Shown here: positions 4,066 through 17,427 of the stretch, piece by piece
Layout of the letters: each line of letters starts with the position of its first letter
How positions within the stretch are numbered: the first letter of the stretch is position 1
Assembly: GCA_035276085.1 (NCBI GenBank)
Contig: DATELY010000001.1
Location: forward strand, 1 to 20,353
DNA: 20,353 nucleotides
Direction of reading: 5' to 3'
Source: Steroidobacteraceae bacterium
GTDB lineage: Bacteria; Pseudomonadota; Gammaproteobacteria; Steroidobacterales; Steroidobacteraceae
Made by a program: the position numbers and the translations under genes
Notes under the pieces: generated by a model
Databases searched by the model: none
Told to the model about the DNA's origin: nothing
The model's input: only the letters and a program-made list of their open reading frames with translations

Positions 4066-6265
4066 TGAATCCGGCTTTTCCCTCCTCCATCCGAGCATTC
4101 AGCGCTGGGTATGGTCAAAGGGGTGGACATCGCTGCGCGACGCTCAGGAGCGAGCGATCCGACCCATTTTGGAAGCCAGGGAAGACATCATCATTGCAGC
4201 GGCGACTGCCGCCGGAAAGACTGAAGCCGCGTTCCTACCCATCCTAACGAACATCGCCAATGCGGGTGAGGAATCAGCGCTCGCAATCTATGTCAGCCCC
4301 CTCAAAGCACTGATCAACGATCAGTGGGGGCGCCTCGAAGAGCTGTGCGAATCCCTCGAGCTGCCGGTTATTCCCTGGCATGGCGACATCCCAGCGAGCA
4401 GAAAGACCCGGTTCCTTAAGTATCCGCGTGGTGTTCTGCTGATCACCCCTGAATCGCTAGAAGCGATGTTTGTAACTCGAGGAAGTGAGACTCCGCGCCT
4501 GTTTGCAGCGTCTCAGCATGTCGTCATCGACGAGCTGCATGCTTTCATCGGCACCGACCGCGGCAAGCAGATGCAGTCTCTCCTCCACCGGATCGATGGT
4601 GCGGCCGCCAAGCGAATACCGAGAGTGGGACTCTCCGCGACGCTCGGAGACATGAAACTCGCCGCCTCATTCCTACGGCCGAACGAAGCTGAGCAGGTGC
4701 GCCTCATCGTTTCGCAAGGCGGCGGGCAGGAGCTTCGGATCCAGGTGCGCGGCTACCTCTGCCCTGCTTTCATCAAGAGCGACGAGAACGCGGAGCATCG
4801 CGACGAGCAAACCCTCGGCTCGGAAAATGCCATCGCGGACCATCTCTACCGGGTGCTTCGCGGCACCAACAATCTCATCTTTCCGAACTCGAGAAAGAAG
4901 GTCGAGTTCTACACCGACGCATTGCGCCAGCGCTGCGAGGCGAACGCAGTGCCCACTGAGTTCTGGCCTCATCACGGAAGTCTCGCACGGGCGATCAGAG
5001 AGGAAACGGAGAAGGCGCTCAAGCAAGGCGACCGGCCCGCAACCGCCATCTGCACGACGACACTGGAGCTGGGCATAGACATTGGGGCCGTACAGAGCGT
5101 CGCGCAGATCGGTCCCGGTCCGTCCGTGGCATCGCTTCGGCAGCGTTTGGGGCGCTCGGGACGACGCCAAGGCGAGCCTGCGATTCTACGTTCCTACAAT
5201 ATCGAGCAGGCGCTGACGGAGAAGTCTTCGCTCTCCGACTGCCTGCGCGAAGCGCTCGTACAGTCGATTGCAATGATTCGATTACTACTGCGAGGCTGGT
5301 TCGAGCCGCCTCACTCGAGCGGCCTGCACCTCTCCACGCTCGTTCAGCAGGTACTGTCCGTCATCGCGGAACGCGGTGGCGCACACGCAAGTCAGCTCTA
5401 TAGGTCGCTAATCAGCGAAGGTGCGTTTCACGGACTCTCATCGGCAGAGTTCGGCGAGTTCCTGAGTAGCCTCGGGAGCAAGGACCTCATCGCTCAGGAC
5501 CGGACGGGTCTGCTGCTCCTCGGAGAGGCCGGGGAACGATTCGTAGGTAGTCATGACTTTTACTCAGCCTTCACGTCCGAGGAAGAATGGCAGATCCTCT
5601 GCCAGGGCCAAACTATGGGCTCGCTGCCCATCAGCTCGCCGATCTTTCCGGGGATGCGATTGATATTCGCAGGACGACGATGGCAGGTTGTTGCCGTCGA
5701 TGAGGAGGCGCTTGTCGTGTCTGTCGCATCAGATCCAGGCGGCTTGCCGCCACTCTTTGGTGGCGGCAAAGCGAGCACGCACGACGTCGTACGACGCGAG
5801 ATGCGCGATGTGCTCGCTGCGAACGAGACGATTGGCTTCCTCGACTCGACCGCCTCCTCGCTGCTCGTCGAGGCTCGCCAGCAGTTTTCCAAGCTCAAGC
5901 TCGACGACACGCGTGTGATCAAGGCCGGCAACCTGACAACCGTGTTCACGTGGCGCGGCGACGCCGCCAACGATGCTCTAGTGCTGCTACTGCGCGGTCT
6001 CGGTATCGACAACGTCGAGAACGAGGGTCTCTATGTTGAAATCGCCAAGTGTGACGATGATCGGCTGCACGATGCCCTGTCGGATATCGCAGAGCTGCGC
6101 GATGTCGACTACATCAGCCTACTGACAGACGTATTCAACATGCGAAGGAGCAAGTGGGATTGGGTTCTCTCTGACTCACATCTCAGGAGATCGTTCGCCT
6201 CCTCGCATCTATCGTTTGAAGGCGCGCGTGCAATCGCACGCGAGTACGCAGATCTAAACCACTGA
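4037..6265 (+). CDS. Superfamily 2 DEAD/DEAH-box helicase, Lhr-like (BrxHI-like), with long C-terminal extension
   Basis: Motif I IIIAAATAAGKTEAAFLPIL, motif II VVIDELHAF (DEAH-type), motif III SATLG, motif VI-like LRQRLGRSGRR. About 350 aa follow the helicase core, as in Lhr-type proteins. The ORF track starts at 3935. I prefer ATG 4037 (GGAG 11 nt upstream; typical Lhr N-terminus FSLLHPSIQRWVWSKGW). ATG 4016 is also possible. Overlaps the upstream gene by 29 nt. Confidence 0.75.
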   Translation: MTSSHPSNSDESGFSLLHPSIQRWVWSKGWTSLRDAQERAIRPILEAREDIIIAAATAAGKTEAAFLPILTNIANAGEESALAIYVSPLKALINDQWGRLEELCESLELPVIPWHGDIPASRKTRFLKYPRGVLLITPESLEAMFVTRGSETPRLFAASQHVVIDELHAFIGTDRGKQMQSLLHRIDGAAAKRIPRVGLSATLGDMKLAASFLRPNEAEQVRLIVSQGGGQELRIQVRGYLCPAFIKSDENAEHRDEQTLGSENAIADHLYRVLRGTNNLIFPNSRKKVEFYTDALRQRCEANAVPTEFWPHHGSLARAIREETEKALKQGDRPATAICTTTLELGIDIGAVQSVAQIGPGPSVASLRQRLGRSGRRQGEPAILRSYNIEQALTEKSSLSDCLREALVQSIAMIRLLLRGWFEPPHSSGLHLSTLVQQVLSVIAERGGAHASQLYRSLISEGAFHGLSSAEFGEFLSSLGSKDLIAQDRTGLLLLGEAGERFVGSHDFYSAFTSEEEWQILCQGQTMGSLPISSPIFPGMRLIFAGRRWQVVAVDEEALVVSVASDPGGLPPLFGGGKASTHDVVRREMRDVLAANETIGFLDSTASSLLVEARQQFSKLKLDDTRVIKAGNLTTVFTWRGDAANDALVLLLRGLGIDNVENEGLYVEIAKCDDDRLHDALSDIAELRDVDYISLLTDVFNMRRSKWDWVLSDSHLRRSFASSHLSFEGARAIAREYADLNH

Positions 6266-6327: not shown

Positions 6328-9300
6328 ATGCTAGCAGCCCATCAATCGTTGCGACTAAGCGCCTCGGATCTCGTCGGCCATCTCAACTGCCGGCATCTGA
6401 CGGCCCTCGAGCTCGAGGCGACCAATGGAACGATCGAGCGCCCAACTTTCCGCGATCCATTGCTGGAAATCCTGTGGGAACGCGGCGCACTCCACGAACG
6501 CCAGTACGTGGACTATCTTGCGAAGGAAGGCTACGCGGTCATCCACATCGAGGGCGTTGGGATTACTCAGGAAGCTGTGCAGCAAACGCAGGCCGCGATG
6601 AAAGCAGGCACTGAGGTCATAGTACAGGCCGCGCTGTCTGGTGGACGCTGGGGCGGCCGGCCCGACATCCTCAGACGCGCCGCGGCACCAAGCGCGCTTG
6701 GGAATTGGTCGTACGAAGTCCTAGACACGAAGCTTGCGCGCGAGACTAGAGGCGGCACAGTCCTGCAACTCTGCCTCTATGCGGATCTTCTTGCCACCGC
6801 TCAGGGACTGTCGCCGGAGTACATGTATGTCGTGAAACCCGGTGCAACCTTTGAGCTGCAGCGCTTCCGGACAGCCAGCTACGAAGCGTACTACCGATAC
6901 GTCAAACGTAGTCTTGAACGTTCGCTTGAGGCCGGTGACGCGACATATCCGAACCCGAAGGAGCACTGCGAGATCTGCCGCTGGCGCATGCAGTGCAACC
7001 TCAAGCAACGGCACGATGACCACCTGTGCCTTGTCGCAGGAATCACGAAAATACAGATTGGTGAGCTCCAGCGCTACGGAATTCACACTGCCGCCGCGCT
7101 CGCACGGATGCCCGTCCCATTACAGTGGAAGCCTGAGCGAGGAGTACCTCAGTCCTACGAGCGATCGCGTGAGCAGGCGCGCGTCCAAGTCGCAGCTCGT
7201 ACGTCGGGGCACCCAATCTACGAGACCATCCCACCGGAGCCCGGGATCGGACTGGCTCGACTGCCGGAACCATCGCCTGGCGACATCTTCTTCGATCTCG
7301 AGGGCGATCCATTCGTGGGTGAGGGTGGCCTTGAATTCCTTTTCGGCTACCTATTCCTCAGCGAGAATGGCGAGCAGTCCCATGTCGGAGAGTGGGCCTT
7401 CAATCGCAATGACGAACAACGCGCCTTCGAGCGCTTTGTTGATTTCACAATGGCGCGCTGGTCGCGGCATCCCGCGATGCACGTCTACCACTATGCATCT
7501 TACGAACCAGGCGCACTGAAGCGCCTGATGGGACGTTACGCCACGCGAGAGGACGAAGTAGACCGCATGCTTCGTGGCGGCCTGTTTGTCGATCTCTACA
7601 CGATCGTGCGGCAAGGCATTCGCGCCAGTGTCGAGAGCTATTCGATCAAGAATCTGGAAGTTTTCTGTGGCTTCACTCGTAAGGTGCCACTCGCCGACGT
7701 GCGCCCTGCCCTCGCGACCGTGCAGGCCGCATTGGAGCTTGCAGACTTAGCACAGGTCAGCGAGCAGGATCGGGAGATCGTCGAAGCGTACAACCGAGAT
7801 GATTGCGCTTCTGCCCAGGCGCTGCGCAATTGGCTGGAGGCTGTTCGGGCAAAGCTGATCACGGAAAGGGCAACGATCGCGCGCCCCGCGGCCGAGTCTT
7901 CCGAGCCCACACAGGAAATCGGCGAGCGCCAGCAACAGATCGAAGCACTGGTCGCCAGACTGACGCAGGGTGTCCCAGCAGAAATCGAAGGTCGCACTGC
8001 CGAGCAGCAAGGCCGATGGATCCTGGCCTACACGCTGGATTGGCACCGGCGCGAGCTCAAGTCGGTCTGGTGGGAATACTTTCGGCTCTCCGACCTGACC
8101 GTAGATGACCTTCTCGACGAGCGTTCCGCACTCGCGGGACTAGAGTTCATCCAGGAGATTGGCGGCACGAAGAAGGCCCCGATTCATCGCTATCGCTTCC
8201 CGGCTCAAGACACCGATCTGAGACCAGGGGACACACTCTGCATGGTGGGTGGTGAAAATCTCGGTCGGATCGAAGCTGTCTCGTATGAGGATCGAACGAT
8301 CGACATCAAGAAGCGAATGGACACCGCATCCGTGCATCCGCAGGCGGTCTTCGAGCATGACCTCGTCGGCACCAATGAGCAGGCCGATGCGCTGATGCGG
8401 CTCGGCATGCATGTGGCGGAACATCGGATAGAAGGGGATGGTCCGTATCAAGCAGCGCGCGATCTGCTGCTGCGTCGGTCACCGGTTGTTTCCCCCGTAC
8501 GCCATGCTGGCGAGACAACGCTGGCTGCGGCGACTCGTCTGGCTCCGATGCTTTCCTCCGGCGTATTGCCCATCCAGGGGCCGCCGGGTGCGGGCAAAAC
8601 GTACACCGCCGCACGCATGATTTGCGAGCTGGTTCGAGCTCGAAAGAAAGTCGGAATCACCGCCAACAGTCACAAGGTCATTCGCAACCTACTAAATGAG
8701 GTCGTGAAAGCAGCTGATGATCTAAATGTCGATATCTCTTGCGTTCAGAAGCCCGGGGAGCCCGAAGAGGATGTTCATCGCATCCGGTTCGCCAGAAAGA
8801 ACGAGGATGTCTTCGCCGCACTCGCTGGGAATTGCGATGTTGCCGGCGGAACCTCGTGGCTCTGGGCGCGCAAAGAGGCATTTGAGTCGGTCGATGTTCT
8901 GTTCGTGGATGAAGCAGCGCAGATGTCTCTCGCGAACGTGCTTGCAGTGGCGCACGCATGCAAGACGCTCATTCTCGTGGGCGACCCACAGCAACTGGAG
9001 CAACCTACGAAGGGCAGCCACCCTGAAGGTACGGACGTATCGGCGCTGCATCATATGCTTGGCGGCAAACCAACCATTGAAGCCGAACAAGGTCTGTTCC
9101 TCGAGGAAACCTGGCGGCTACATCCTGCTATCTGCAAATTCACTTCCGAACTTTTCTACGAGGACAAACTTCGACCCCGTCCTGGCCTCGAGCGCCAAAC
9201 GATCCGTTCGACGCGAGCGAATGGATCAGGACTGCGTTTCTTTGCTGTGGCACACGAAGGCAACCAGAACTCAGCGCCCGAGGAAGCCGATCAGATTCGC

Positions 9301-9705
9301 GCAATTGTTGACGACATCCTCGGCACAAGGAGCACTTGGGTCGACGCGAAAGGCAAGGAGCTGCCGCTTGAGCCCACAGATCTCCTCATCATCGCACCCT
9401 ACAATGCGCAGGTCTTCGAACTTCAGGAGCGCCTACCTGCCTTTCGCGTTGGTACCGCCGACAAGTTCCAGGGCCAGGAAGCACCGATCGTGATCTATTC
9501 GATGACCACTTCCACTCACGCTGACGCCCCACGAGGGATGGAGTTTTTGTACAGCTTAAACCGATTGAACGTTGCAACGTCGCGAGCGAAGTGCCTATGT
9601 ATTCTCGTAGGGTCGCCGGCGCTGTTTGAACCCGAATGCAAGACGCCTGGGCAAATGGAATTAGCGAATGCGTTCTGCCGATATCTGGAGATGGCTACAA
9701 GCTAG
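6328..9705 (+). CDS. Nuclease-helicase fusion: Cas4/RecB-family PD-(D/E)xK nuclease with Fe-S cysteines + DnaQ/RNase-H-like domain + SF1B (Upf1/DNA2-like) helicase
   Basis: N-terminal nuclease motifs: GRPDIL (motif II), YEVLDTKLA (E-x-D-x-K motif III), QLCLYADLL (QhxxY). Cys ligands: one Cys in LNCRHLTALE plus CEICRWRMQC (C-x2-C-x5-C), the Cas4/AddB 4Fe-4S pattern. Mid-region DIFFDLEGDPF and YHYASYEPG resemble DnaQ-like exonuclease I/II motifs. C-terminal helicase: Walker A IQGPPGAGKTYTAA, Walker B VLFVDEAAQM, LILVGDPQQL, motif VI VATSRAKCLCILVG. Confidence 0.8.
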   Translation: MLAAHQSLRLSASDLVGHLNCRHLTALELEATNGTIERPTFRDPLLEILWERGALHERQYVDYLAKEGYAVIHIEGVGITQEAVQQTQAAMKAGTEVIVQAALSGGRWGGRPDILRRAAAPSALGNWSYEVLDTKLARETRGGTVLQLCLYADLLATAQGLSPEYMYVVKPGATFELQRFRTASYEAYYRYVKRSLERSLEAGDATYPNPKEHCEICRWRMQCNLKQRHDDHLCLVAGITKIQIGELQRYGIHTAAALARMPVPLQWKPERGVPQSYERSREQARVQVAARTSGHPIYETIPPEPGIGLARLPEPSPGDIFFDLEGDPFVGEGGLEFLFGYLFLSENGEQSHVGEWAFNRNDEQRAFERFVDFTMARWSRHPAMHVYHYASYEPGALKRLMGRYATREDEVDRMLRGGLFVDLYTIVRQGIRASVESYSIKNLEVFCGFTRKVPLADVRPALATVQAALELADLAQVSEQDREIVEAYNRDDCASAQALRNWLEAVRAKLITERATIARPAAESSEPTQEIGERQQQIEALVARLTQGVPAEIEGRTAEQQGRWILAYTLDWHRRELKSVWWEYFRLSDLTVDDLLDERSALAGLEFIQEIGGTKKAPIHRYRFPAQDTDLRPGDTLCMVGGENLGRIEAVSYEDRTIDIKKRMDTASVHPQAVFEHDLVGTNEQADALMRLGMHVAEHRIEGDGPYQAARDLLLRRSPVVSPVRHAGETTLAAATRLAPMLSSGVLPIQGPPGAGKTYTAARMICELVRARKKVGITANSHKVIRNLLNEVVKAADDLNVDISCVQKPGEPEEDVHRIRFARKNEDVFAALAGNCDVAGGTSWLWARKEAFESVDVLFVDEAAQMSLANVLAVAHACKTLILVGDPQQLEQPTKGSHPEGTDVSALHHMLGGKPTIEAEQGLFLEETWRLHPAICKFTSELFYEDKLRPRPGLERQTIRSTRANGSGLRFFAVAHEGNQNSAPEEADQIRAIVDDILGTRSTWVDAKGKELPLEPTDLLIIAPYNAQVFELQERLPAFRVGTADKFQGQEAPIVIYSMTTSTHADAPRGMEFLYSLNRLNVATSRAKCLCILVGSPALFEPECKTPGQMELANAFCRYLEMATS

Positions 9706-10603: not shown

Positions 10604-10679
10604 GCGGATGTAGCTCAATTGGCAGAGCGCGAGTCTTCCAAACTCGAGGTCATGGGTTCGATCCCCATCGTCCGCCCCA
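10604..10679 (+). tRNA. tRNA-Gly (anticodon TCC), CCA encoded
   Basis: Cloverleaf: acceptor GCGGATG/CGTCCGC, D-arm TAGCTCAATTGGCAGAGC, anticodon stem CGAGT/ACTCG with loop CTTCCAA, T-arm ATGGG-TTCGATC-CCCAT, discriminator C, CCA. Confidence 0.85.
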
Positions 10680-10737
10680 GATTTCGATGCACGTTGCGAC
10701 TCTCATGCGAGTTGAACGTGTGCATCTTAGTTGATTC

Positions 10738-10814
10738 GCGGATGTAGTTCAGTCAGGCAGAACACGACGTCGCCAACGTCGAGGCCATGGGTTCGAGTCC
10801 CATCGTCCGCACCA
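10738..10814 (+). tRNA. tRNA-Gly (anticodon GCC), CCA encoded
   Basis: Same acceptor as the preceding Gly. Anticodon stem CGACG/CGTCG with loop TCGCCAA. T-loop TTCGAGT. Paralog of the upstream Gly gene. Confidence 0.85.
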
Positions 10815-10823
10815 CTCAAGTTT

Positions 10824-10908
10824 GCCGACGTGGTTGAACTGGCAGACACGCCAGCCCGAGGAGCTGGTAGCGAAAGCTTTGCCGGTTCGAGTCCGGCCGT
10901 CGGCACCA
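10824..10908 (+). tRNA. tRNA-Leu (anticodon GAG), class II, CCA encoded
   Basis: Acceptor GCCGACG/CGTCGGC. Anticodon stem CCAGC/GCTGG with loop CCGAGGA (unusual C32 C33). Long variable arm. T-arm GCCGG-TTCGAGT-CCGGC. Aligns with E. coli Leu-GAG architecture. Confidence 0.7.
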
Positions 10909-10948
10909 ATGTGTGATTTCGTTCGTTAAACCACATAAGGAGAATGTC

Positions 10949-12166
10949 ATGAGCCTCGAGGAAATGACGAAGATCGACAACCTGAAGTCATGGATCTCGG
11001 GTGTCGACATCGATTGGGACACGGTGAAGCAGCTGCGCAACATCGCGGAGCTGCCGATCCTCGCAGGTCACGTGGCCGTGATGCCGGACGTGCATCTCGG
11101 CAAGGGCGCAACTGTGGGATCGGTGATTCCGACCAAGGGCGCGATCATTCCGGCTGCGGTCGGCGTGGACATCGGCTGCGGTATGGCGGCCGTGCGCACG
11201 GAGATCTCCGCGAATCAGTTGCCGGACTCGCTGCGTCGACTGCGCTTGCGCATCGAAGAGCGTGTGCCGGTCGGATTCAACTCGCACGATCGACCGCTCA
11301 ATCCTCTGCACGATGGCTTGCGCGGGGTTGCACTGTCGAATGCCGGCAAGAAGATGGCGGAGCGGTACAACACGCTCAAGATCATGGACGTCATCGGCAA
11401 GCACGACCACAAGCGCACGTACAACCAGCTGGGAACGCTGGGCGGCGGCAACCACTTCATCGAGCTGTGTGTCGATGAGTCGAACGGCGTGTGGGTAATG
11501 CTTCACTCCGGCTCGCGCAACATCGGCAAGACGATCGGGGAGACGGCGATCCACATGGCGCGCCAGATTGCGGAACGCGAGGAGCGCGGGCTGCGTGACC
11601 GCGACCTTGCGTGGCTTGACGAAGGTTCGGCCGAGTTCGACATGTACGTCGAAGGCCTGCGCTGGGCGCAAGACTATGCGGCTCACAACCGCGCTTTGAT
11701 GATGCACGAGGTGCTGGTCGCGCTTCGTGAGGAGTTCGGGCGCGAGATCGCGATGTTCGAGAACGCAGTCCAGTGTCACCACAACTATGCATCGGTCGAA
11801 GAGCACTTCGGCCAACAGGTGTGGGTAACCCGCAAGGGCGCGGTATCGGCGCGTCGCGACGAGCTCGGCATCATCCCTGGCTCAATGGGTGCCAAGTCGT
11901 TCATCGTGCGCGGTAAGGGCAATGCAGATTCGTATTGCTCCTGCTCGCATGGCGCCGGTCGTCGCCTCTCTCGCGGCGCTGCGAAGCGGACTTACACGCT
12001 CGCGGATCTGAAGAGGCAGACGGAAGGCGTCGAGTGCCGCAAGGACGAAGGCGTGCTCGATGAGATCCCGGGCGCCTACAAGGACATCGATATGGTCATG
12101 GCTGCGCAGGCCGACCTCGTCGACGTCGTACATACCTTGAAGCAAGTGATGTGCATCAAGGGTTGA
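10949..12166 (+). CDS. rtcB: RtcB-family 3'-phosphate/5'-hydroxyl RNA ligase
   Basis: RBS AAGGAGA 5 nt before ATG 10949. The ORF track's 10913 start lacks an RBS. Hallmark RtcB motifs: LGTLGGGNHFIEL, AVQCHHNYA (GMP-histidine region), CSCSHGAGRR, and the metal-binding-type HLGKGATVGS. Confidence 0.9.
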   Translation: MSLEEMTKIDNLKSWISGVDIDWDTVKQLRNIAELPILAGHVAVMPDVHLGKGATVGSVIPTKGAIIPAAVGVDIGCGMAAVRTEISANQLPDSLRRLRLRIEERVPVGFNSHDRPLNPLHDGLRGVALSNAGKKMAERYNTLKIMDVIGKHDHKRTYNQLGTLGGGNHFIELCVDESNGVWVMLHSGSRNIGKTIGETAIHMARQIAEREERGLRDRDLAWLDEGSAEFDMYVEGLRWAQDYAAHNRALMMHEVLVALREEFGREIAMFENAVQCHHNYASVEEHFGQQVWVTRKGAVSARRDELGIIPGSMGAKSFIVRGKGNADSYCSCSHGAGRRLSRGAAKRTYTLADLKRQTEGVECRKDEGVLDEIPGAYKDIDMVMAAQADLVDVVHTLKQVMCIKG

Positions 12167-12212
12167 TGTCTCTTCGAGGGTTGGGTGTACGGATGCACCC
12201 GACTCTCACTCT

Positions 12213-12365
12213 GCACCGGTAGCTCAATTGGTATGGTCGAGACCATTTCCGTTGGTCGGAGTTGCGGTTTCGCCGCTCCTGCGCGTCCATGCGCCCGCGG
12301 CATTCGCACATCCGTGTGCAGCACAAAACCGCCTGTTGGGGGTTCGAGTCCCTCCCGGTGTGCCA
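12213..12365 (+). tRNA. Aberrant 153-nt tRNA-like locus: 5' acceptor + D-arm start (GCACCGG TA GCTCAATTGGTA...) and 3' T-arm/acceptor/CCA (GGGGG-TTCGAGT-CCCTC CCGGTGT G CCA) separated by about 85 nt of extra hairpin-rich sequence; isotype undetermined
   Basis: Acceptor halves pair (GCACCGG/CCGGTGT with G1-U72). T-loop TTCGAGT and CCA are canonical. No standard anticodon arm was found by eye. A possible anticodon stem GCGGT...ACCGC flanks a roughly 55-nt insert. Confidence 0.4.
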
Positions 12366-12379
12366 CTTTTTCAAATGAT

Positions 12380-12464
12380 CCGTTCCTGGCGGAACTGGTA
12401 GACGCGCTGGGCTCAGAACTCAGTGTCTTCGGACATCCCGGTTCGACTCCGGGGGAACGGACCA
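12380..12464 (+). tRNA. tRNA-Leu (anticodon CAG), class II, CCA encoded
   Basis: Acceptor CCGTTCC/GGAACGG. D-arm TGGCGGAACTGGTAGACGCG as in E. coli Leu. Anticodon stem CTGGG/CTCAG with loop CTCAGAA. Variable arm GTGTC-TTCG-GACAT. T-arm CCCGG-TTCGACT-CCGGG. Confidence 0.8.
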
Positions 12465-12482
12465 CAACATCGTCTGATCTAC

Positions 12483-12694
12483 GCGGGCGTAGCGGAAAAG
12501 GTAAACGCGACCCTAAAACGTGAAGAGGGAAAGCCGAAGAGGCTACGCGGGTAATCAGCCGAGGCACGTGGTTGCGGATGCACCGAATGGCTACGCGAGT
12601 GGTCGCCAGGGAAGCGCGTTTCCAAGCCGACGCTGTCTTCGAGTAATGATCGGAGTTCCGCGATGTGCAGGTTCGAATCCTGTCGCCCGCACCA
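12483..12694 (+). tRNA. Aberrant 212-nt tRNA-like locus: 5' GCGGGCG TA GCGG... and 3' GCAGG-TTCGAAT-CCTGT CGCCCGC A CCA with perfectly complementary acceptor strands separated by about 135 nt; insert contains GGCTACGCG(G/A)G repeated three times
   Basis: Canonical T-arm, discriminator and CCA at the 3' end. A perfectly complementary 7-nt acceptor partner lies 200 nt upstream. Too short for a group I intron. Could be an interrupted or intron-containing tRNA, or a pseudogene plus fragment. Confidence 0.3.
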
Positions 12695-12710
12695 ATACTT
12701 CTTGAGCCGT

Positions 12711-12798
12711 GCGCTCCTGGTTGGAACTGGAAGACACGCCGCGCTTAAAACGCGGTGCTCATTCGAGCGTGCCGGTTCGAATCCGGCGGAGCGCACCA
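12711..12798 (+). tRNA. tRNA-Leu (anticodon TAA), class II, CCA encoded
   Basis: Acceptor GCGCTCC/GGAGCGC. Anticodon stem CCGCG/CGCGG with loop CTTAAAA. Variable arm GCTC-ATTC-GAGC. T-arm GCCGG-TTCGAAT-CCGGC. Confidence 0.85.
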
Positions 12799-12814
12799 CT
12801 GGTTCGATTCTTTC

Positions 12815-12900
12815 GCGTCCCTGGTTGGAATTGGAATACACGCTGCGCTCAAAACGCAGTGCCTTCGGGCATGCCGGTTCGAATCCGGCGGGACGCACCA
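12815..12900 (+). tRNA. tRNA-Leu (anticodon CAA), class II, CCA encoded
   Basis: Paralog of the preceding Leu-TAA (same D-arm and T-arm). Anticodon stem CTGCG/CGCAG with loop CTCAAAA. Variable arm TGCC-TTCG-GGCA. Confidence 0.85.
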
Positions 12901-12908
12901 GTTTCTGC

Positions 12909-12985
12909 GGATCGTTAGCTCAATTGGCCAGAGCATCCGGTTCTTACCCGGCAGGTTGAAGGTTCGATTCCTTCACGGTCCACCA
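12909..12985 (+). tRNA. tRNA-Lys (anticodon CTT), CCA encoded
   Basis: Acceptor GGATCGT/ACGGTCC. Anticodon stem TCCGG/CCGGC (27-43 mismatch) with loop TTCTTAC. T-loop TTCGATT. Confidence 0.75.
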
Positions 12986-13001
12986 ACATCACCTTGTGCA
13001 G

Positions 13002-13076
13002 GGGCGTGTAGCTCAAGGGTTAGAGCATCCGGCTTTTAACCGGACGGCGAGGGTTCGATCCCCTCCGCGCCCACCA
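13002..13076 (+). tRNA. tRNA-Lys (anticodon TTT), CCA encoded
   Basis: Acceptor GGGCGTG/CGCGCCC. Anticodon stem TCCGG/CCGGA with loop CTTTTAA. T-arm GAGGG-TTCGATC-CCCTC. Confidence 0.85.
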
Positions 13077-13078
13077 CT

Positions 13079-13152
13079 TGGGGCTTCGTCTAGCGGCAGG
13101 ACATCGCGCTTTGAACGCGAGAACTCAGGTTCGAACCCTGGAGCCCCAGCCA
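13079..13152 (+). tRNA. tRNA-Gln (anticodon TTG), CCA encoded
   Basis: U1-A72 acceptor TGGGGCT/AGCCCCA (a Gln hallmark). Anticodon stem TCGCG/CGCGA with loop CTTTGAA. T-loop TTCGAAC. Discriminator G. Confidence 0.85.
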
Positions 13153-13167
13153 CACGCGATTGCGAAT

Positions 13168-13243
13168 GCCACGTTAACTCAGCGGCCAGAGTGCTCGCCT
13201 GTCTAGCGAGAAGTCACGGGTTCGAATCCCGTACGTGGCGCCA
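13168..13243 (+). tRNA. tRNA-Asp (anticodon GTC), CCA encoded
   Basis: Acceptor GCCACGT/ACGTGGC. Anticodon stem CTCGC/GCGAG with loop CTGTCTA. T-arm ACGGG-TTCGAAT-CCCGT. Discriminator G. Confidence 0.85.
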
Positions 13244-13249
13244 GATCAC

Positions 13250-13325
13250 GCACCGATAGCTCAGCTGGTAGAGCGCCTGGTTGAAGCCCAGGAGGCCGCA
13301 GGGTCGAAACCTGCTCGGTGCACCA
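13250..13325 (+). tRNA. tRNA-Phe (anticodon GAA), CCA encoded, atypical T-loop GTCGAAA and G37
   Basis: Acceptor GCACCGA/TCGGTGC. Anticodon stem CCTGG/CCAGG with loop TTGAAGC. T-stem GCAGG/CCTGC with loop GTCGAAA (G at position 54). Confidence 0.7.
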
Positions 13326-13335
13326 CTTTCATCGT

Positions 13336-13411
13336 TGGCCAGTAGCTCAGTTGGCAGAGCACTCCGCTGTTACCGGAGCCGTCACAGGTTCGAGTCCTGT
13401 CTGGCCAGCCA
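13336..13411 (+). tRNA. tRNA-Asn (anticodon GTT), CCA encoded
   Basis: Acceptor TGGCCAG/CTGGCCA (U1-A72). Anticodon stem CTCCG/CGGAG with loop CTGTTAC. T-arm ACAGG-TTCGAGT-CCTGT. Confidence 0.8.
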
Positions 13412-13445
13412 CATCTTTTGAATAGCGAACCAAGAGGAGAACGCG

Positions 13446-13688
13446 ATGACTTCGATCAAAGAGATGGTGGCGAACGGCCGCAAAGTTCGATTCACGCACT
13501 ACAAGTCCGGTGAGCTCTGGTACGAGACGGAGTGCGGATTCGCATTCCCTGTACCGACCGCGGATGCAGGCGACGGATGTTTCCTAGCTGAAGACAAGGC
13601 GCTGCTGTTCATGCGCTACATCAGGAAGCACAAAGAGGTGCTCGATCACGCGCGTGCTGACGCTGAGTCCGCCGACCAACAGCCATAG
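13446..13688 (+). CDS. Hypothetical small protein (80 aa) embedded in the tRNA array
   Basis: Strong RBS AAGAGGAGA 6 nt before ATG 13446. ORF sits in an otherwise tRNA-only interval. No recognisable motif. Followed by a hairpin-rich repeat. Confidence 0.5.
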   Translation: MTSIKEMVANGRKVRFTHYKSGELWYETECGFAFPVPTADAGDGCFLAEDKALLFMRYIRKHKEVLDHARADAESADQQP

Positions 13689-13695
13689 GTGAAGT

Positions 13696-13917
13696 CCCTT
13701 TACGCGAGGTCCCGAAGGCCCGGCCTCGCGAGAGCTCGGAACTCACTCTTGGGACACACGGGACGCGCGCGAACACGCGCGTTCGGGCCGCACTGATTCG
13801 ACGCTTTGACCAGGCCCTTTGCGCGAGAGTCCACCGCCCCAACCTCGCGAGGAGCATAGATACGCCTCCTTGGGACGAACGGGAACGCCGCAGATTCTGC
13901 GGTCAGTACTCGGGGCC
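13696..13917 (+). repeat. Tandem direct repeat, two copies of a roughly 100-nt element (copy A 13696-13789, copy B 13815-13917, period about 119 nt) with conserved blocks CCCTTTRCGCGAG / CCTCGCGAGRAGC / CTTGGGACRMACGGGA / CGGGCC and hairpins at matching positions built from different sequence
   Basis: Read directly. First hairpin CGCGAGG...CCTCGCG in both copies. Second hairpin ACGCGCG-CGAACA-CGCGCGT in A versus CCGCAG-ATT-CTGCGG in B. Same position, different sequence, which suggests a conserved RNA or DNA structure. Confidence 0.5.
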
Positions 13918-13928
13918 CCAACACACTC

Positions 13929-14003
13929 GCACGTATAGCTCAGCGGGAGAGCGCCGCTCTTACAAAGCGGAAGTCCTTGGTTCAATCCCAAGTGCGTGCG
14001 CCA
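13929..14003 (+). tRNA. tRNA-Val (anticodon TAC), CCA encoded
   Basis: Acceptor GCACGTA/TGCGTGC. Anticodon stem CCGCT/AGCGG with loop CTTACAA. T-arm CTTGG-TTCAATC-CCAAG. Confidence 0.85.
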
Positions 14004-14009
14004 CTTCAT

Positions 14010-14087
14010 GCGACGTTAGCTCAGATGGAACAGAGCGCCGGTTTGCGATGCCGGAGGCCGAAGGTTCAAGTCCTTCACGTCGCACCA
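14010..14087 (+). tRNA. tRNA-Arg (anticodon GCG), CCA encoded
   Basis: Acceptor GCGACGT/ACGTCGC. Anticodon stem CCGGT/GCCGG with loop TTGCGAT. T-arm GAAGG-TTCAAGT-CCTTC. Confidence 0.75.
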
Positions 14088-14094
14088 CATGTTC

Positions 14095-14171
14095 GCTCTC
14101 ATCGTCTAGTTGGACCAGGACACCTCCCTCTCACGGAGAAGACTGGAGTTCGAATCTCCATGAGAGCGCCA
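14095..14171 (+). tRNA. tRNA-Glu (anticodon CTC), CCA encoded
   Basis: Acceptor GCTCTCA/TGAGAGC. Glu-type D-arm TCGTCTAGTTGGACCAGGACA. Anticodon stem CCTCC/GGAGA (27-43 mismatch) with loop CTCTCAC. T-arm TGGAG-TTCGAAT-CTCCA. Confidence 0.8.
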
Positions 14172-14176
14172 CTGTT

Positions 14177-14255
14177 CGTTCCCGTCGTCTAGCCCGGCTC
14201 AGGACGCCGCCCTTTCAAGGCGAGAACACGAGTTCGAATCTCGTCGGGAACACCA
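14177..14255 (+). tRNA. tRNA-Glu (anticodon TTC), CCA encoded
   Basis: Acceptor GTTCCCG/CGGGAAC. Anticodon stem CCGCC/GGCGA with loop CTTTCAA. T-arm ACGAG-TTCGAAT-CTCGT. Confidence 0.8.
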
Positions 14256-14287
14256 ACCACGCGCGCATCTGGCGCGTACGAATTGAT

Positions 14288-14362
14288 TGGGAAGTCGTCT
14301 AACCGGCAGGACAGCGGACTCTGACTCCGCGAATGTGGGTTCGAGCCCTACCTTCCCAACCA
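14288..14362 (+). tRNA. tRNA-Gln (anticodon CTG), CCA encoded
   Basis: U1-A72 acceptor TGGGAAG/CTTCCCA. Anticodon stem GCGGA/TCCGC with loop CTCTGAC. T-arm GTGGG-TTCGAGC-CCTAC. Confidence 0.8.
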
Positions 14363-14378
14363 ACGCAAAGCTCACGAT

Positions 14379-14456
14379 GGTGGCGTTAGCTCAGTCGGTC
14401 AGAGTCCCGAGCTGTGAACTCGGAGGTCGTGGGTTCGAACCCCACACGTCGCCCCA
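14379..14456 (+). tRNA. tRNA-His (anticodon GTG) with encoded G-1 and C73, CCA encoded
   Basis: Extra 5' G before acceptor GTGGCGT pairs with discriminator C, the bacterial His hallmark. Anticodon stem CCGAG/CTCGG with loop CTGTGAA. T-arm GTGGG-TTCGAAC-CCCAC. Closely resembles E. coli tRNA-His. Confidence 0.85.
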
Positions 14457-14464
14457 ACTTCAAC

Positions 14465-14540
14465 GCCGAGATAGCTCAGCAGGCAGAGCAGCTGCTTCGT
14501 AAGCAGCATGTGGTCGGTTCGACTCCGACTCTCGGCTCCA
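14465..14540 (+). tRNA. tRNA-Thr (anticodon CGT), CCA encoded
   Basis: Acceptor GCCGAGA/TCTCGGC. Anticodon stem GCTGC/GCAGC with loop TTCGTAA. T-arm GTCGG-TTCGACT-CCGAC. Discriminator T. Confidence 0.85.
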
Positions 14541-14551
14541 TACTCTTGATC

Positions 14552-14639
14552 GCACTCGTGGCCGAGCGGCTGAAGGCGCCGGACTGCAATTCCGGTGAGC
14601 ACATGCTCCACGTCAGTTCGAATCTGACCGAGTGCTCCA
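14552..14639 (+). tRNA. Class II (long variable arm) tRNA with Cys anticodon GCA and U73 discriminator; Ser-like D-arm (TGGCCGAGCGGCTGAAGGC)
   Basis: Perfect acceptor GCACTCG/CGAGTGC. 3-bp D-stem GCC/GGC with a Ser-type D-loop. Anticodon stem CCGGA/TCCGG with loop CTGCAAT. 16-nt variable arm TGAGCACATGCTCCAC (GAGCA/TGCTC stem). T-arm GTCAG-TTCGAAT-CTGAC. T73, CCA. Confidence 0.65.
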
Positions 14640-14650
14640 CTCTCTTCTTC

Positions 14651-14729
14651 AGGGACTTAGCGCAGCCTGGTCAGCGCACCTGCCTTGGGCGGAGGGGGGT
14701 CGCGAGTTCGAATCTCGCAGTCCCTACCA
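14651..14729 (+). tRNA. tRNA-Pro (anticodon TGG), CCA encoded
   Basis: Acceptor AGGGACT/AGTCCCT. D-arm TAGCGCAGCCTGGTCAGCGC like E. coli Pro. Anticodon loop CTTGGGC (G37), stem with one mismatch, irregular variable region. T-arm GCGAG-TTCGAAT-CTCGC. Confidence 0.65.
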
Positions 14730-14737
14730 TTTTCATT

Positions 14738-14814
14738 CTCGATGTAGCTCAGCTTGGCAGAGCGCTTCGTTCGGGACGAAGAGGCCGCGCGTTCGAGTCG
14801 CGCCATCGAGACCA
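14738..14814 (+). tRNA. tRNA-Pro (anticodon CGG), CCA encoded
   Basis: Acceptor CTCGATG/CATCGAG. Anticodon stem CTTCG/CGAAG with loop TTCGGGA. T-arm GCGCG-TTCGAGT-CGCGC. Very similar to E. coli proK. Confidence 0.85.
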
Positions 14815-14827
14815 CTTTTTCTTCTAT

Positions 14828-14904
14828 GGCCGCTTAGCTCAATTGGCGAGAGCGCTCGACCGATAATCGAGAGGTTGCTGGTTCGAGTCCAGCAGCGGCT
14901 ACCA
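14828..14904 (+). tRNA. tRNA-Ile (anticodon GAT) with unusual C33, CCA encoded
   Basis: Acceptor GGCCGCT/AGCGGCT (G1-U72). Anticodon stem CTCGA/TCGAG with loop CCGATAA. T-arm GCTGG-TTCGAGT-CCAGC. Confidence 0.7.
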
Positions 14905-14914
14905 ACGTTCCACT

Positions 14915-14991
14915 GGGCCTGTAGCTCCAACTGGCAGAGCGCCTGCCTTGCAAGCAGGACGGTGCGAGTTCGAATCTCGCCAGGTCCACCA
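14915..14991 (+). tRNA. tRNA-Ala (anticodon TGC) with G3-U70, CCA encoded
   Basis: Acceptor GGGCCTG/CAGGTCC carries the G3·U70 alanine identity pair. Anticodon stem CCTGC/GCAGG with loop CTTGCAA. T-arm GCGAG-TTCGAAT-CTCGC. Confidence 0.85.
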
Positions 14992-14996
14992 TCTTC

Positions 14997-15073
14997 CGTG
15001 CAGTGGCGAAGCGGCCTAACGCACCGGTCTCATAAGCCGGTCATCGATGGTTCGAATCCATCCTGCACGACCA
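14997..15073 (+). tRNA. tRNA with CAT anticodon (elongator Met or lysidine-Ile; not initiator-like), CCA encoded
   Basis: Acceptor CGTGCAG/CTGCACG with C1-G72 paired. 3-bp D-stem. Anticodon loop CTCATAA. No GGG/CCC run in the anticodon stem. T-arm GATGG-TTCGAAT-CCATC. Confidence 0.75.
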
Positions 15074-15105: not shown

Positions 15106-15678
15106 ATGAGTCCGCATATTCTCGCGCTCGACGTCGCCGGCGCTCCGCACCGGTGGATCAACGTTCGTACCGCTGCACACTACTACGCGACCGACATGAT
15201 CGCGTGGGCTGCCGGCGCGAGCGAGTTCACGCTGCGTGGTGGCACTCAGCGCTCGACGGGTTTGCAGTCACTCATTCGTGCGAGTTCGATCGTCGCCATC
15301 AAGGGCAAGGACTTCATCGTCCGCCACTTCGATCAGGTGCCGACGCTCACGAAGGAGATGCTGCTCGCTCGCGATCGATATCTGTGTTCGTACTGCGCGC
15401 AGCGGTTTCGCTTCGAGCAGCTCGACATGGAGCACATCGTGCCGCGCTCAAAGGGCGGCGAGGATTCCTGGATGAACCTCGTCGCCGCGTGCAAGGCGTG
15501 CAACAACCGTAAGGCCAACCGCACGCCGGAGGCTGCCGGCATGAAGCTGCACTACGTACCGTATGTACCGAACCGGTACGAGGCCTTCATCTTGAGCAAC
15601 CGCAAGATCCTGGCGGACCAGATGGAGTTTCTGCTCCAGGGTGTGCCGAAGGGCTCTCGAATGCACTTGAACGCCTAG
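15106..15678 (+). CDS. HNH endonuclease (190 aa)
   Basis: RBS AAAGGAGGAG 6 nt before ATG 15106. Classic HNH/zinc-finger motif CSYCAQRF...MEHIVPRSKGGEDSWMNLVAACKACNNRK (C-x2-C...H...N...C-x2-C-N). Confidence 0.85.
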   Translation: MSPHILALDVAGAPHRWINVRTAAHYYATDMIAWAAGASEFTLRGGTQRSTGLQSLIRASSIVAIKGKDFIVRHFDQVPTLTKEMLLARDRYLCSYCAQRFRFEQLDMEHIVPRSKGGEDSWMNLVAACKACNNRKANRTPEAAGMKLHYVPYVPNRYEAFILSNRKILADQMEFLLQGVPKGSRMHLNA

Positions 15679-15710: not shown

Positions 15711-15759
15711 GCCGTACACCACTTACAACCAAACTGACACAATGAGACAGGAGGGCCCA

Positions 15760-17097
15760 ATGGAAGAGAAAACATTCTTGAGCAAGCTGGGCTCTCGCCT
15801 CTTCGCTCATCCCGGCTTTGAGAATCTCGTGGCGCTTTCAACCAGCGCCAACGGCTTCAGGCGGGAGGATGCCGTACGCCGACTTGGGATGCTGGGCGAC
15901 CCACGAGCGATCCCTTGCCTGATTGTTCGCGCCAACGATTGGGTTCCTCAGGTTCGGACGGCTGCATTCGATGCATTGATCCGAATGCTCAAGTCTGGAA
16001 ACGGCGATGCGTTCGTTACTTCACTGCCGCAGATCCTTCACCTGCAGAGCTGCAGCCGCGGCGATCACACCGAGCTGCTAGCGGCGATTCGTGAGTTTCT
16101 GCTGCGTGAGCAGAACCGAAGCGCTCTTCTCGCCGGAATGGAGAATCGAGACAGCCGTGTAGCAAGGCTCGTTACTCGCTTAGTGGTCGATCACCAGTTG
16201 ATGGCGCCTGCCGAGCTTGTGACGAAGGGTCTGGCACACAGCGATGTGCTTGTCCGGTCCATCATCGTGGATCTTTTGCAGCGGCTGACTCAGGACGAGT
16301 TCGAGACGTTGGCTGACAGGGTTCTCGGAGACACCTACATGCCAGTACGTCGCGAAGCGTTCCAACAGCTTCTGCGGCGGATGCCGGGACGGGGTACGGT
16401 AGCCGCACGGAATCTTTTGTTCGACCGATCCGCGTCGATCCGAGAGATAGCTGTTCAACACCTCCTTGCTCAGGGCGAGTCTGTCGATGAGATCTATGCC
16501 AGTGCGCTGGCAAGGAACGGCGGTCACGCAGCAACAGTCAGATGCGTGCTGTGGGGTTGGGCGCTGATGAACAATCAGGCTCGCGCTGTGCAGGTTGAGC
16601 AATTTCTCGTTTCACCTGTTCCGGCGATCCGTCGCGCTGCCCTGTCCTCAATTGGACGGCTTCTGCGCACAGCGGCAGGCCCGCATCTCGAGAAGGGTCT
16701 CGGAGATGCGTCCCCTGCTGTATGCAACGAAGCAGCTAGATTGATCAGCAGAATCGGTGTTTCCCCCGGCATCGAAACTCTCATGGCGATTGCTACTTCG
16801 AGTGGCCTTGCTCATGTTGCCTACGCTTGCTGTCGCGTAGCCCGCGACGGCAACAAGTGGAACTGGCTGAGGTTCATCCTGGGCGTGTATGGCCGCTCCG
16901 CGTGCGAGATCTCATCGGAAGTTTTCTCAAGAGAGATCGACGCGTGGGAGTGGCAGTTCAACCGCAGCTACGCACAACCGGATCCGCATCAGTTGGCGGA
17001 AGTCGTGCAGTTGTTTGCAGCCTCCCGAGATCGGCTCTCGACGGGGCGCGTTCAACTACTGGCGTTCACGCTCCGAACTTACGGTGGTGCCGTATGA
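15760..17097 (+). CDS. HEAT-repeat (PBS-lyase-type) protein, about 445 aa
   Basis: RBS AGGAGGG 6 nt before ATG 15760. The track's 15742 start lies 18 nt upstream in frame. Repeated DxxVRxxAxxALGxLGDPRAIPxL-type units (EDAVRRLGMLGDPRAIPCLIVRANDWVPQVRTAAFDALIRML; AIRRAALSSIGRLL) typical of HEAT/PBS-lyase repeats. Confidence 0.65.
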   Translation: MEEKTFLSKLGSRLFAHPGFENLVALSTSANGFRREDAVRRLGMLGDPRAIPCLIVRANDWVPQVRTAAFDALIRMLKSGNGDAFVTSLPQILHLQSCSRGDHTELLAAIREFLLREQNRSALLAGMENRDSRVARLVTRLVVDHQLMAPAELVTKGLAHSDVLVRSIIVDLLQRLTQDEFETLADRVLGDTYMPVRREAFQQLLRRMPGRGTVAARNLLFDRSASIREIAVQHLLAQGESVDEIYASALARNGGHAATVRCVLWGWALMNNQARAVQVEQFLVSPVPAIRRAALSSIGRLLRTAAGPHLEKGLGDASPAVCNEAARLISRIGVSPGIETLMAIATSSGLAHVAYACCRVARDGNKWNWLRFILGVYGRSACEISSEVFSREIDAWEWQFNRSYAQPDPHQLAEVVQLFAASRDRLSTGRVQLLAFTLRTYGGAV

Positions 17098-17321: not shown

Positions 17322-17394
17322 TGCAATGTAGCTCAGTGGGTAGAGCAAGCAGCTCATAACTGCTCGGTCGAGGGTTCGACTCCCTCTATTGCGA
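17322..17394 (+). tRNA. tRNA-Met-like (anticodon CAT) without encoded CCA and with a weak acceptor stem (two G·U pairs including 1-72); possibly a host or degenerate copy
   Basis: Good D-arm TAGCTCAGTGGGTAGAGCA. Anticodon stem AGCAG/CTGCT with loop CTCATAA. T-arm GAGGG-TTCGACT-CCCTC. Acceptor TGCAATG/TATTGCG is imperfect. It is the only tRNA here not followed by CCA. Confidence 0.5.
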
Positions 17395-17427
17395 CGACTT
17401 TGCCAAGTCGTACTGGTAAGGCCTCAC

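Follow-up and report, generated by a model that had tools for sequence, protein, structure and literature searches.

A conserved long-variable-arm tRNA-Cys(GCA) of 7/5 architecture in a gammaproteobacterial tRNA array and in uncultivated phages

According to textbooks and reviews on tRNA identity, the only bacterial tRNAs with long variable arms are those for serine (Ser), leucine (Leu), tyrosine (Tyr) and selenocysteine (Sec). Here we describe a tRNA-Cys(GCA) gene with a long variable arm at positions 14552-14639 (+ strand) of a 20,353-nt stretch of DNA from a Steroidobacteraceae bacterium (assembly GCA_035276085.1, contig DATELY010000001.1, positions 1 to 20,353; this whole stretch is hereafter called the window), where it lies within an array of tRNA genes. 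The only reported long-arm exception for cysteine (Cys) is selC*, which mimics tRNA-Sec and has in common with the window gene U73, the long arm and the anticodon GCA, although selC* also occurs with UCA (PMC5389517). The cysteinyl-tRNA synthetase (CysRS) of D. tiedjei was reported to be functional in vitro, and an engineered variant of it efficiently cysteinylated the D. biacutus selC* tRNA-Cys in E. coli, where the tRNA read an opal codon (PMC5389517); a long-arm tRNA-Cys that works in translation thus has a precedent. However, selC* tRNAs have an 8/4 branch (some with an A51a bulge), and their anticodon and acceptor stems are longer, whereas the window gene encodes a plain 7/5 tRNA (7-bp acceptor stem, 5-bp T stem). 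In addition, selC* is distributed among anaerobic Firmicutes, Deltaproteobacteria and comparable groups and shows linkage to selB*/cysS* and the Sec machinery, while the present gene belongs to a tRNA array, and a Pfam scan of the window found no selB*, cysS* or Sec machinery genes.

Other described tRNAs that combine a long arm with an anticodon outside Ser, Leu and Tyr are the allo-tRNAs and the nematode nev-tRNAs, which are charged according to their class II body (with Ser, Ala or Leu) and so cause mistranslation (PMC5389517, PMC3333845). The allo-tRNAs are 8/4 or 9/3 rather than 7/5, and in the window tRNA, unlike in either group, anticodon and discriminator agree, both being those of Cys. 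A tRNA-Sec, selC* or allo-tRNA architecture is ruled out by the 7/5 stems with their covariation and by the assignment to the Rfam tRNA family (see below). In full-text literature searches, no account of a tRNA-Cys with 7/5 architecture and a long arm came up, either for phages or for tRNA arrays, and an eLife paper on tRNA evasion by phages mentions neither Cys nor variable arms. The 7/5 long-arm tRNA-Cys is apparently a conserved and so far undescribed type.

A preliminary description, made from the sequence alone, had reported an 88-nt class II-shaped tRNA with a 16-nt variable arm, the anticodon GCA and U73 at this position and had placed it outside the textbook class II rule. The former is confirmed by ARAGORN, Rfam, minimum free energy (MFE) folding and the sequence, and the latter is borne out by the class II shape in combination with GCA and U73. 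ARAGORN calls a tRNA-Cys(gca) of 88 nt at 14552-14639(+), which matches Rfam RF00005 with 56.6 bits (gathering score 29), and tRNA-Sec is not the best match. The MFE fold is a cloverleaf with a fifth hairpin, the variable arm; its z-score of -1.7 is weak taken alone and usual for tRNAs. The 5' strand of the acceptor stem (G1 C2 A3 C4 U5 C6 G7, 14552-14558) pairs with 14629-14635 into a 7-bp stem, GCACUCG/CGAGUGC, which is Watson-Crick throughout, has C:G at 2:71 and is followed by U8. The D-arm, GCC-GAGCGGCUGAA-GGC (14561-14577), consists of a 3-bp stem and an 11-nt loop with A14, G15 and G18G19, and the anticodon arm, CCGGA-CUGCAAU-UCCGG (14579-14595), of a 5-bp stem and a loop with GCA at 14586-14588. 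The variable region UGAGCACAUGCUCCAC (14596-14611), which rests on the MFE fold and on the geometry statistics given below, reads U-GAGC-ACAU-GCUC-CAC, i.e. one unpaired base, a 4-bp stem, a 4-nt loop and three unpaired bases ending in C48; with its 16 nt and hairpin it lies within class II (more than 10 nt with a stem-loop). The T-arm, GUCAG-UUCGAAU-CUGAC (14612-14628), has a 5-bp stem, and the 3' strand of the acceptor stem (14629-14635), the discriminator U73 (14636) and an encoded CCA (14637-14639) complete the gene, all parts of which lie on the + strand. All 24 stem pairs are intact, and in score, stems, U8, A14, G18G19, U33 and T-loop the tRNA agrees with the canonical 7/5 tRNAs of RF00005; G15, C48, U73 and CCA are likewise present. 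The motif that we used in searches, AAGGCNNNNNNCTGCAAN{20,36}GTTCRAATC, covers the D-stem, the anticodon loop and the T-loop; it matches once in the window and in none of 100 shuffles.

Related arrays were found with the HNH protein encoded next to the array as a marker, and a protein-guided metagenome scan yielded 80 loci (individual loci are given by L numbers). RtcB, which is also encoded in the array, was rejected as a guide: its closest homologues (L051, L052) are chromosomal and come without tRNA genes, and HNH performed far better. The preliminary description had proposed a search for the same tRNA in related arrays, and BLAST and ARAGORN returned six syntenic orthologues, each an 88-nt tRNA-Cys(gca), that are 84-95% identical to the window tRNA: L082, L088 and L098 (94-95%), L107 (89%), L122 (87.5%) and L117 (about 84%). 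They follow tRNA-Thr(cgt) or tRNA-Arg(tct), or in L082 tRNA-His(gtg), and the next gene is always a tRNA-Pro; in the window, spacers of 11 nt separate the gene from tRNA-Thr(cgt) upstream and from tRNA-Pro(tgg) downstream. The gene order of the window array is common to L056, L088, L098, L117 and L122. None of the six orthologues has lost GCA, U73, C48 or the GAGC/GCUC arm, and in the six-sequence alignment all 144 of 144 stem cells are standard pairs. Six pairs have changes on both sides: two in the acceptor stem (2:71 and 5:68, in L117), two in the anticodon stem (29:41 and 31:39, which covary among the orthologues) and two in the T stem (in L117). None of 500 shuffles matched this combination of stem pairing and compensatory changes, and no slid register came close. 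The window copy is separated from L082/L088 by three substitutions, and it scores 113 bits on the family covariance model, within the range of the orthologues (105.7-116 bits). The gene is a real, well-folded tRNA gene, neither a one-off nor an error.

The largest arrays show what the long-arm tRNA accompanies. L122 (36 tRNAs) and L117 (48 tRNAs) each cover all 20 amino acids and contain four ordinary tRNA-Ser, one tRNA-Tyr and tRNA-Trp; the long-arm tRNA is their only Cys tRNA. A short-loop tRNA-Cys was found in none of the HNH-linked arrays. Since in the full arrays the long-arm gene is the sole Cys tRNA beside four normal Ser tRNAs, plain decoding of Cys codons is suggested rather than ambiguous decoding as Ser and Cys.

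The same form of tRNA occurs in uncultivated phages. The motif, which leaves the acceptor stem, the discriminator and the variable region unconstrained, matches 86 viral contigs in IMG/VR, and in 83 of them ARAGORN calls a tRNA-Cys(gca) of 81-92 nt with a long arm. Many of these contigs are large (100-500 kb), and the long-arm gene usually lies within a tRNA cluster. Together, the viral and array copies make up 58 distinct long-arm sequences, 54 of which were parsed for features. Among the 54, U73 is present in 52, C48 in 52 and G1:C72 in 47, while pair 2:71 is free (G:C in 21, C:G in 18, U:A in 7 and A:U in 6). In 43 of the 54, the variable region is predicted to form a stem of 3 bp or more, compared to 16 ± 3 (maximum 26) in 200 shuffles, and RNAalifold on 26 diverse members gave a cloverleaf with a variable-arm helix in which 18 of 24 pairs show compensatory changes. 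All seven long-arm members that were tested belong to Rfam tRNA and none to tRNA-Sec. Short-variable-loop tRNA-Cys with the same AAGGC D-arm motif match at least 120 viral loci (98 distinct sequences), so the long-arm form constitutes a substantial minority of phage tRNA-Cys; U73 is found in 96 of the 98 distinct short-loop sequences among the matches listed. L200 is the only long-arm locus that also holds a shorter GCA tRNA within the stretch visible. BLAST of the window tRNA and five other long-arm tRNA-Cys against 50,697 phage records found no Cys homologue, which is a weak negative given the insensitivity of searches with queries of ~85 nt, and the same queries found none among the PLSDB plasmids, again at low sensitivity. 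The only matches were true tRNA-Ser(UGA) genes with G73.

Which synthetase would be expected to charge such a tRNA? The major determinants of Cys identity are U73 and the anticodon GCA, and minihelices gain Cys identity from U73 alone (PMC9976931). The window tRNA has both U73 (14636) and G34-C35-A36, and the latter is kept in all orthologues. With the canonical class I tRNA-Cys of bacteria and phages it shares GCA, U73, G1:C72, the CUGCAA loop, the 3-bp D-stem GCC...AAGGC and the 7/5 architecture; it differs from them in the variable region, which is 16 nt long with a 4-bp hairpin instead of a 4-5-nt loop. Its Levitt pair is G15:C48 and not G15:G48, a determinant specific to E. coli and H. 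influenzae. By the textbook rule, class I synthetases, including CysRS, dock on the minor-groove/D-arm side of the tRNA, and the variable region would be left facing the solvent. As such docking leaves the variable region on the far side, the long arm should be tolerated by CysRS.

The requirements of seryl-tRNA synthetase (SerRS) are different. Ser identity depends on the size and orientation of the arm, bacterial tRNA-Ser have conserved G1:C72 and G2:C71, C2:G71 is an antideterminant against E. coli SerRS, and in yeast tRNA-Leu the insertion of a single nucleotide into the arm suffices for serine acceptance (PMC9976931). The window tRNA has a long arm in common with tRNA-Ser, the D-arm of the array tRNA-Ser(GCU) is nearly identical to its own, and GCU is one base from GCA. 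However, it has U73 and C2:G71 where tRNA-Ser has G73 and G2:C71, and its arm (4 bp, three unpaired bases) deviates from Ser geometry, for which the stem counts 5 bp or more and no more than two 3' bases are unpaired. We compared the arms of all class II tRNAs from the loci that also hold a long-arm tRNA-Cys. In tRNA-Ser (n = 43), the arm stem is 5-7 bp long and is followed by 0-2 unpaired 3' bases (mostly one), G73 is present in 35 of 43 and G:C at 2:71 in 37 of 43. Leu arms (n = 69) have stems of 3-4 bp and mostly two unpaired 3' bases, with A73 in 65 of 69 and mostly C:G at 2:71 (45). In tRNA-Tyr (n = 27) the stems are also 3-4 bp, three 3' bases are unpaired in 20 of the 23 that folded, A73 is invariant (27/27) and 2:71 is G:C in 23. 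Finally, the long-arm tRNA-Cys (n = 54) have stems of 3-4 bp and mostly three unpaired 3' bases (CAC or CGC), with U73 in 52 of 54 and a variable pair 2:71. Thus, as predicted from these sequences, the geometry of the long Cys arm is Tyr-like and not Ser-like: like the arm of bacterial tRNA-Tyr it has one unpaired base, a stem of 3-4 bp and three unpaired 3' bases. The codon box of tRNA-Tyr (UAY) also neighbours that of Cys (UGY). On the other hand, tRNA-Tyr have A73 and GUA, in place of the U73 and GCA of the window tRNA, and the Tyr genes of the arrays differ from it in the D-arm and the acceptor stem. SerRS should not use the window tRNA because it has a short arm (4-bp stem, spacer of 3 nt on the 3' side), lacks G73 and has C:G at 2:71, and the synthetases for Tyr and Leu (TyrRS, LeuRS) should reject it because A73 is missing. 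The claim of the preliminary description that this arm is the one SerRS recognises does not stand up to the comparison with the Ser arms of the same loci.

The preliminary description had further called the D-arm Ser-type. This feature is not diagnostic because ordinary short-loop tRNA-Cys at the at least 120 viral loci mentioned above carry the same AAGGC motif; judged by sequence, the supposedly Ser-type D-arm is also the normal D-arm of tRNA-Cys. Where, then, does the arm come from? Over the whole sequence, the long-arm tRNA-Cys reach no more than about 0.69 identity with Ser, Tyr and Leu genes, be they from the same locus or from another, and this rules out a recent anticodon switch from a Ser, Tyr or Leu paralogue. 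We also compared the cores of the array tRNAs (variable region excised, positions of the motif masked) to the different groups, and the nearest were tRNA-Cys genes. Against other long-arm tRNA-Cys, the median identity was 0.52-0.57 (best 0.63-0.69); against short-loop phage tRNA-Cys 0.47-0.50 (best 0.70-0.72, L260); against tRNA-Ser 0.43-0.50 (best 0.54-0.65); and against tRNA-Tyr 0.38-0.46 (best 0.48-0.62). The acceptor stem of L260, GCACUUG/CAAGUGC, is one base pair from the array stem GCACUCG/CGAGUGC, and L260 shares the 8-13 segment with L122 and L107 and has a near-identical T-arm, while the alignment shows a gap of ~12 columns in the variable region. Most likely, the arm arose when the variable loop of an ordinary tRNA-Cys expanded into a hairpin, a history reconstructed from these comparisons; that the arms range widely in length, from 9 to 21 nt, and that some are unstructured agrees with such a history.

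From the observed structure, conservation, covariation, synteny and sole-Cys status we infer that the gene is expressed, that its product is charged by CysRS and that SerRS rejects it. The gene is probably the genuine cysteine tRNA of the array and would be charged by the CysRS of the host and read UGU/UGC as Cys. It would be transcribed together with its neighbours as a polycistron and then processed, the host CysRS would attach cysteine by way of U73 and G34-C35-A36, and the charged tRNA would decode UGU and UGC. The extra hairpin would be a lineage trait of a tRNA-Cys pool that circulates in phages and mobile tRNA arrays, i.e. an arm that is inherited, tolerated and possibly useful. Several observations weigh against this interpretation, and some of them would suit a tRNA of dual identity, one that SerRS charges wholly or in part through the long arm and that reads UGY as Ser or as a mixture of Cys and Ser, as the preliminary description had considered possible. 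The arm is long and structured, SerRS ignores the anticodon, and for allo-tRNAs, Mukai et al. treat the combination of U73 and a long arm as compatible with SerRS and accept U73 for serylation (PMC5389517). The D-arm resembles that of the array tRNA-Ser(GCU), which is also the best non-Cys match, within the arrays, of the covariance model built from the array orthologues (74.5 bits, versus 105-116 for the orthologues), and the jumbo-phage member L153 is 86% identical over positions 7-78 to a cyanophage tRNA-Ser(UGA); these two likenesses make an origin from tRNA-Ser conceivable for some members. Moreover, the host CysRS and SerRS genes were not seen in the DNA examined. Nevertheless, charging with serine seems improbable: every Ser tRNA of the same loci has a 5-7-bp arm with a spacer of 0-2 nt, the window tRNA combines C2:G71 with the absence of G73 and G2:C71, U73 is as strictly conserved as in ordinary phage tRNA-Cys, and full-set arrays with four Ser tRNAs have this tRNA as their only one for Cys. 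The idea of an ambiguous Cys/Ser decoder is disfavoured by the same pair, arm geometry and sole-Cys status. Even less can be said for the view that a tRNA-Tyr or tRNA-Ser gene has mutated here or that the anticodon was misread in sequencing, which has next to no probability. A single change would convert GUA or GCU to GCA, and the arm geometry is Tyr-like, but GCA and U73 recur in all six orthologues, which come from different samples, and a pseudogene in L056 (see below) retains CUGCA. The same arrays also hold separate, dissimilar Tyr and Ser genes, with the low class II identity given above. The orthologues refute this explanation, and the misread GTA anticodon of a tRNA-Tyr that the preliminary description had contemplated is excluded with it, as every orthologue keeps GCA.

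Further points against a working Cys tRNA concern the window copy itself, which may be a decaying remnant, structurally intact and yet working poorly or not expressed, within an array undergoing gene loss. Of the 54 parsed sequences, 48 have A at position 38 and 5 have C, and only the window copy has U. MiaA requires A36-A37-A38, and U38 in the window copy may prevent the formation of N6-isopentenyladenosine at position 37 (i6A37). The loop of the window arm is ACAU, whereas the closest orthologues have GCAA or GAAA, which are of GNRA form; with U38 and this loop, the window copy may be slightly impaired. The window array, which covers 17 amino acids and has no ordinary tRNA-Cys, has already lost Ser, Tyr and Trp, and a Cys tRNA is missing altogether from several reduced related arrays. 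The closest array, L056, whose HNH protein is 97% identical, has a broken copy at the same place: positions 9513-9600 are a chimeric pseudogene in which the 5' two-thirds of the long-arm tRNA-Cys are joined via a shared UUCGAAUCU T-loop to the 3' end of tRNA-Pro(tgg). The chimera indicates that adjacent tRNA genes recombined through their T-loops, which caused a deletion. In L069 (8725-8860), ~77 nt of unrelated sequence split the copy after the D-loop GG, and the T-arm is degenerate; this copy, too, is a pseudogene. As the copies in L056 and L069 are broken, the long-arm gene is dispensable. Yet in the window copy all stem pairs and conserved positions are intact, its score on the family model lies inside the orthologue range, and one of the three substitutions that separate it from L082/L088 strengthens a pair (U:G to C:G). 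Decay is thus a real but less likely alternative to a functional cysteine tRNA and, although unlikely, slightly easier to credit than charging with serine. A remaining explanation is compatible with charging by CysRS and competes with the above only on why the arm exists: the arm could be adaptive, an escape from or a decoy for nucleases or toxins that target tRNAs, or a mark for a dedicated partner. The arm recurs with covarying stems in many unrelated phage lineages, and an adaptive role such as nuclease evasion or a decoy is attractive because the array contains the RNA-repair ligase RtcB and adjoins defence genes of the Shango and Mokosh-like types; changes that evade anticodon nucleases are known from phage tRNAs (cited in PMC13056530). 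However, the arms vary widely in length and sequence (9-21 nt) and 11 of the 54 have no predicted stem, which argues for relaxed constraint rather than a specific interface. In addition, no nuclease targeting tRNA-Cys was identified in this analysis, and short-loop tRNA-Cys are commoner in phages. We consider an adaptive arm doubtful, although less so than decay. The bolder proposal that 7/5 long-arm tRNA-Cys form a distinct, undescribed class, selected in phages and mobile arrays for an arm with a function of its own, is equally tentative; the function could then be, for example, nuclease escape or decoy, binding of a dedicated factor that recognises the arm, or a controlled ambiguity between Ser and Cys.

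If such a distinct class existed, the class II rule (Ser, Leu, Tyr, Sec) would be broken in the mobilome for adaptive reasons. A conserved 7/5 long-arm tRNA-Cys in at least 83 viral contigs and several arrays would show that natural CysRS identity is largely indifferent to the variable region, that the mobilome explores tRNA shapes which cellular genomes do not, and that tRNA length or class is an unsafe proxy for isotype in annotation. The variants, with arms of 9-21 nt, structured and unstructured, would offer a natural set for probing how SerRS, TyrRS, LeuRS and CysRS discriminate between class II bodies, and they are candidate scaffolds for the design of orthogonal tRNAs. If the tRNA were partly serylated, it would be a natural device for Cys-to-Ser mistranslation.

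As for the surroundings of the gene, ARAGORN finds 26 tRNA genes on the + strand of the window. The main block of the array (10604-15073, +) contains 25 same-strand genes with spacers of mostly 3-33 nt and three larger gaps, one of which is occupied by rtcB. The remaining gene, a tRNA-Met(cat) without encoded CCA, lies apart at 17322-17395 (+), and the same gene is present in L056 (10768-10841). The array resembles the L-arrays exemplified by the trn operon of Anabaena (Santamaria-Gomez et al. 2021, PMC8421152) in its 26 clustered same-strand tRNAs, the link to rtcB and the gain and loss of genes between relatives; L-arrays have more than ~20 clustered same-strand tRNA genes and vary between relatives, and the related arrays here have 6-48 genes in a shared order. 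L-arrays are described as silent operons that translational stress induces, and that study does not mention Cys or variable arms (PMC8421152). The best explanation is that the array is an accessory long tRNA array carried by a gammaproteobacterium, and we regard this as quite likely. The G+C content is ~60% throughout the window, and the closest RtcB and HNH proteins with a named source come from metagenome-assembled genomes (MAGs) of Steroidobacteraceae, other Gammaproteobacteria and Burkholderiaceae.

The rtcB gene for the RNA ligase lies inside the array at 10913-12166 (+; Pfam PF01139, E = 4.9e-127). As its homologues have 405 aa, the true start is probably ~12 codons downstream, and the wrong start codon is probably the cause of an exact look-up of the window RtcB finding no record. 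The array is followed by genes, identified with Pfam, for an HNH endonuclease (15106-15678, +) and a HEAT-repeat protein (15742-17097, +). The order rtcB, tRNA genes, HNH, HEAT-repeat gene recurs as a module in many metagenomic contigs (L055, L056, L057, L059), with 0 (L057), 2, 6 and up to 48 tRNA genes, and in L057 a gene for IS605 OrfB/TnpB adjoins it. The module looks like a mobile or expandable cassette. In L056, a gene similar to lambda Ea47 is inserted just upstream of the chimeric pseudogene. Upstream of the array, three consecutive Shango defence genes (470-6265; SngA E = 2e-108, SngB E = 1e-182, SngC E = 1e-274) are followed by a gene for a Mokosh-like helicase-nuclease of 1125 aa (6328-9705) with PD-(D/E)XK nuclease, RNase H-like and SF1 helicase parts that matches MkoA and MkoC. 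Given these genes, the tRNA array abuts a defence island.

Some other tRNA genes of the arrays and phages are also unusual. In the window (listed regions 10604-10679, 10738-10814 and 14997-15073), other array tRNAs depart from the identity rules of host-type tRNAs. The two tRNA-Gly genes have C73 and A73; the discriminator of bacterial tRNA-Gly is U73. A short variable loop is combined with a class II/Cys-like D-arm, GCG-AAGCGGCCUAA-CGC, in the tRNA-Met(cat) at 14997. In a Paraburkholderia MAG (L006 1-51, minus strand), a sequence directly after tRNA-Gly(tcc) has the look of a class II-type tRNA's 5' half, with CCCUGCAAA as its 9-nt loop, and is truncated by the end of the locus. In L082, two Rfam tRNA matches of 97-98 nt (524-621 and 969-1065, 47-48 bits), which ARAGORN does not call, possibly contain an intron or a large insertion, and ARAGORN reports 'tRNA-???' with two-base anticodons and irregular anticodon loops in L055 (7135-7206), L088 (366-441) and L117 (11321-11395). 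Among the viral loci (L142-L227, e.g. L183, L198, L185, L168 and L176), ARAGORN also calls other tRNAs of at least 80 nt whose variable regions are long and whose anticodons belong to none of Ser, Leu and Tyr: Thr(tgt) seven times (six with U73), Asn(gtt) four times, and Ile, Lys, Met, Pro, Val, Phe, His and Glu. Their stems are often 3 bp long, with three unpaired 3' bases. The long-arm phenomenon in phages may thus not be limited to Cys, and some of these calls could be mis-folds or introns. Finally, a tmRNA (7441-7791, 107.8 bits) is encoded on the viral contig L196 alongside a long-arm tRNA-Cys and 27 tRNAs.

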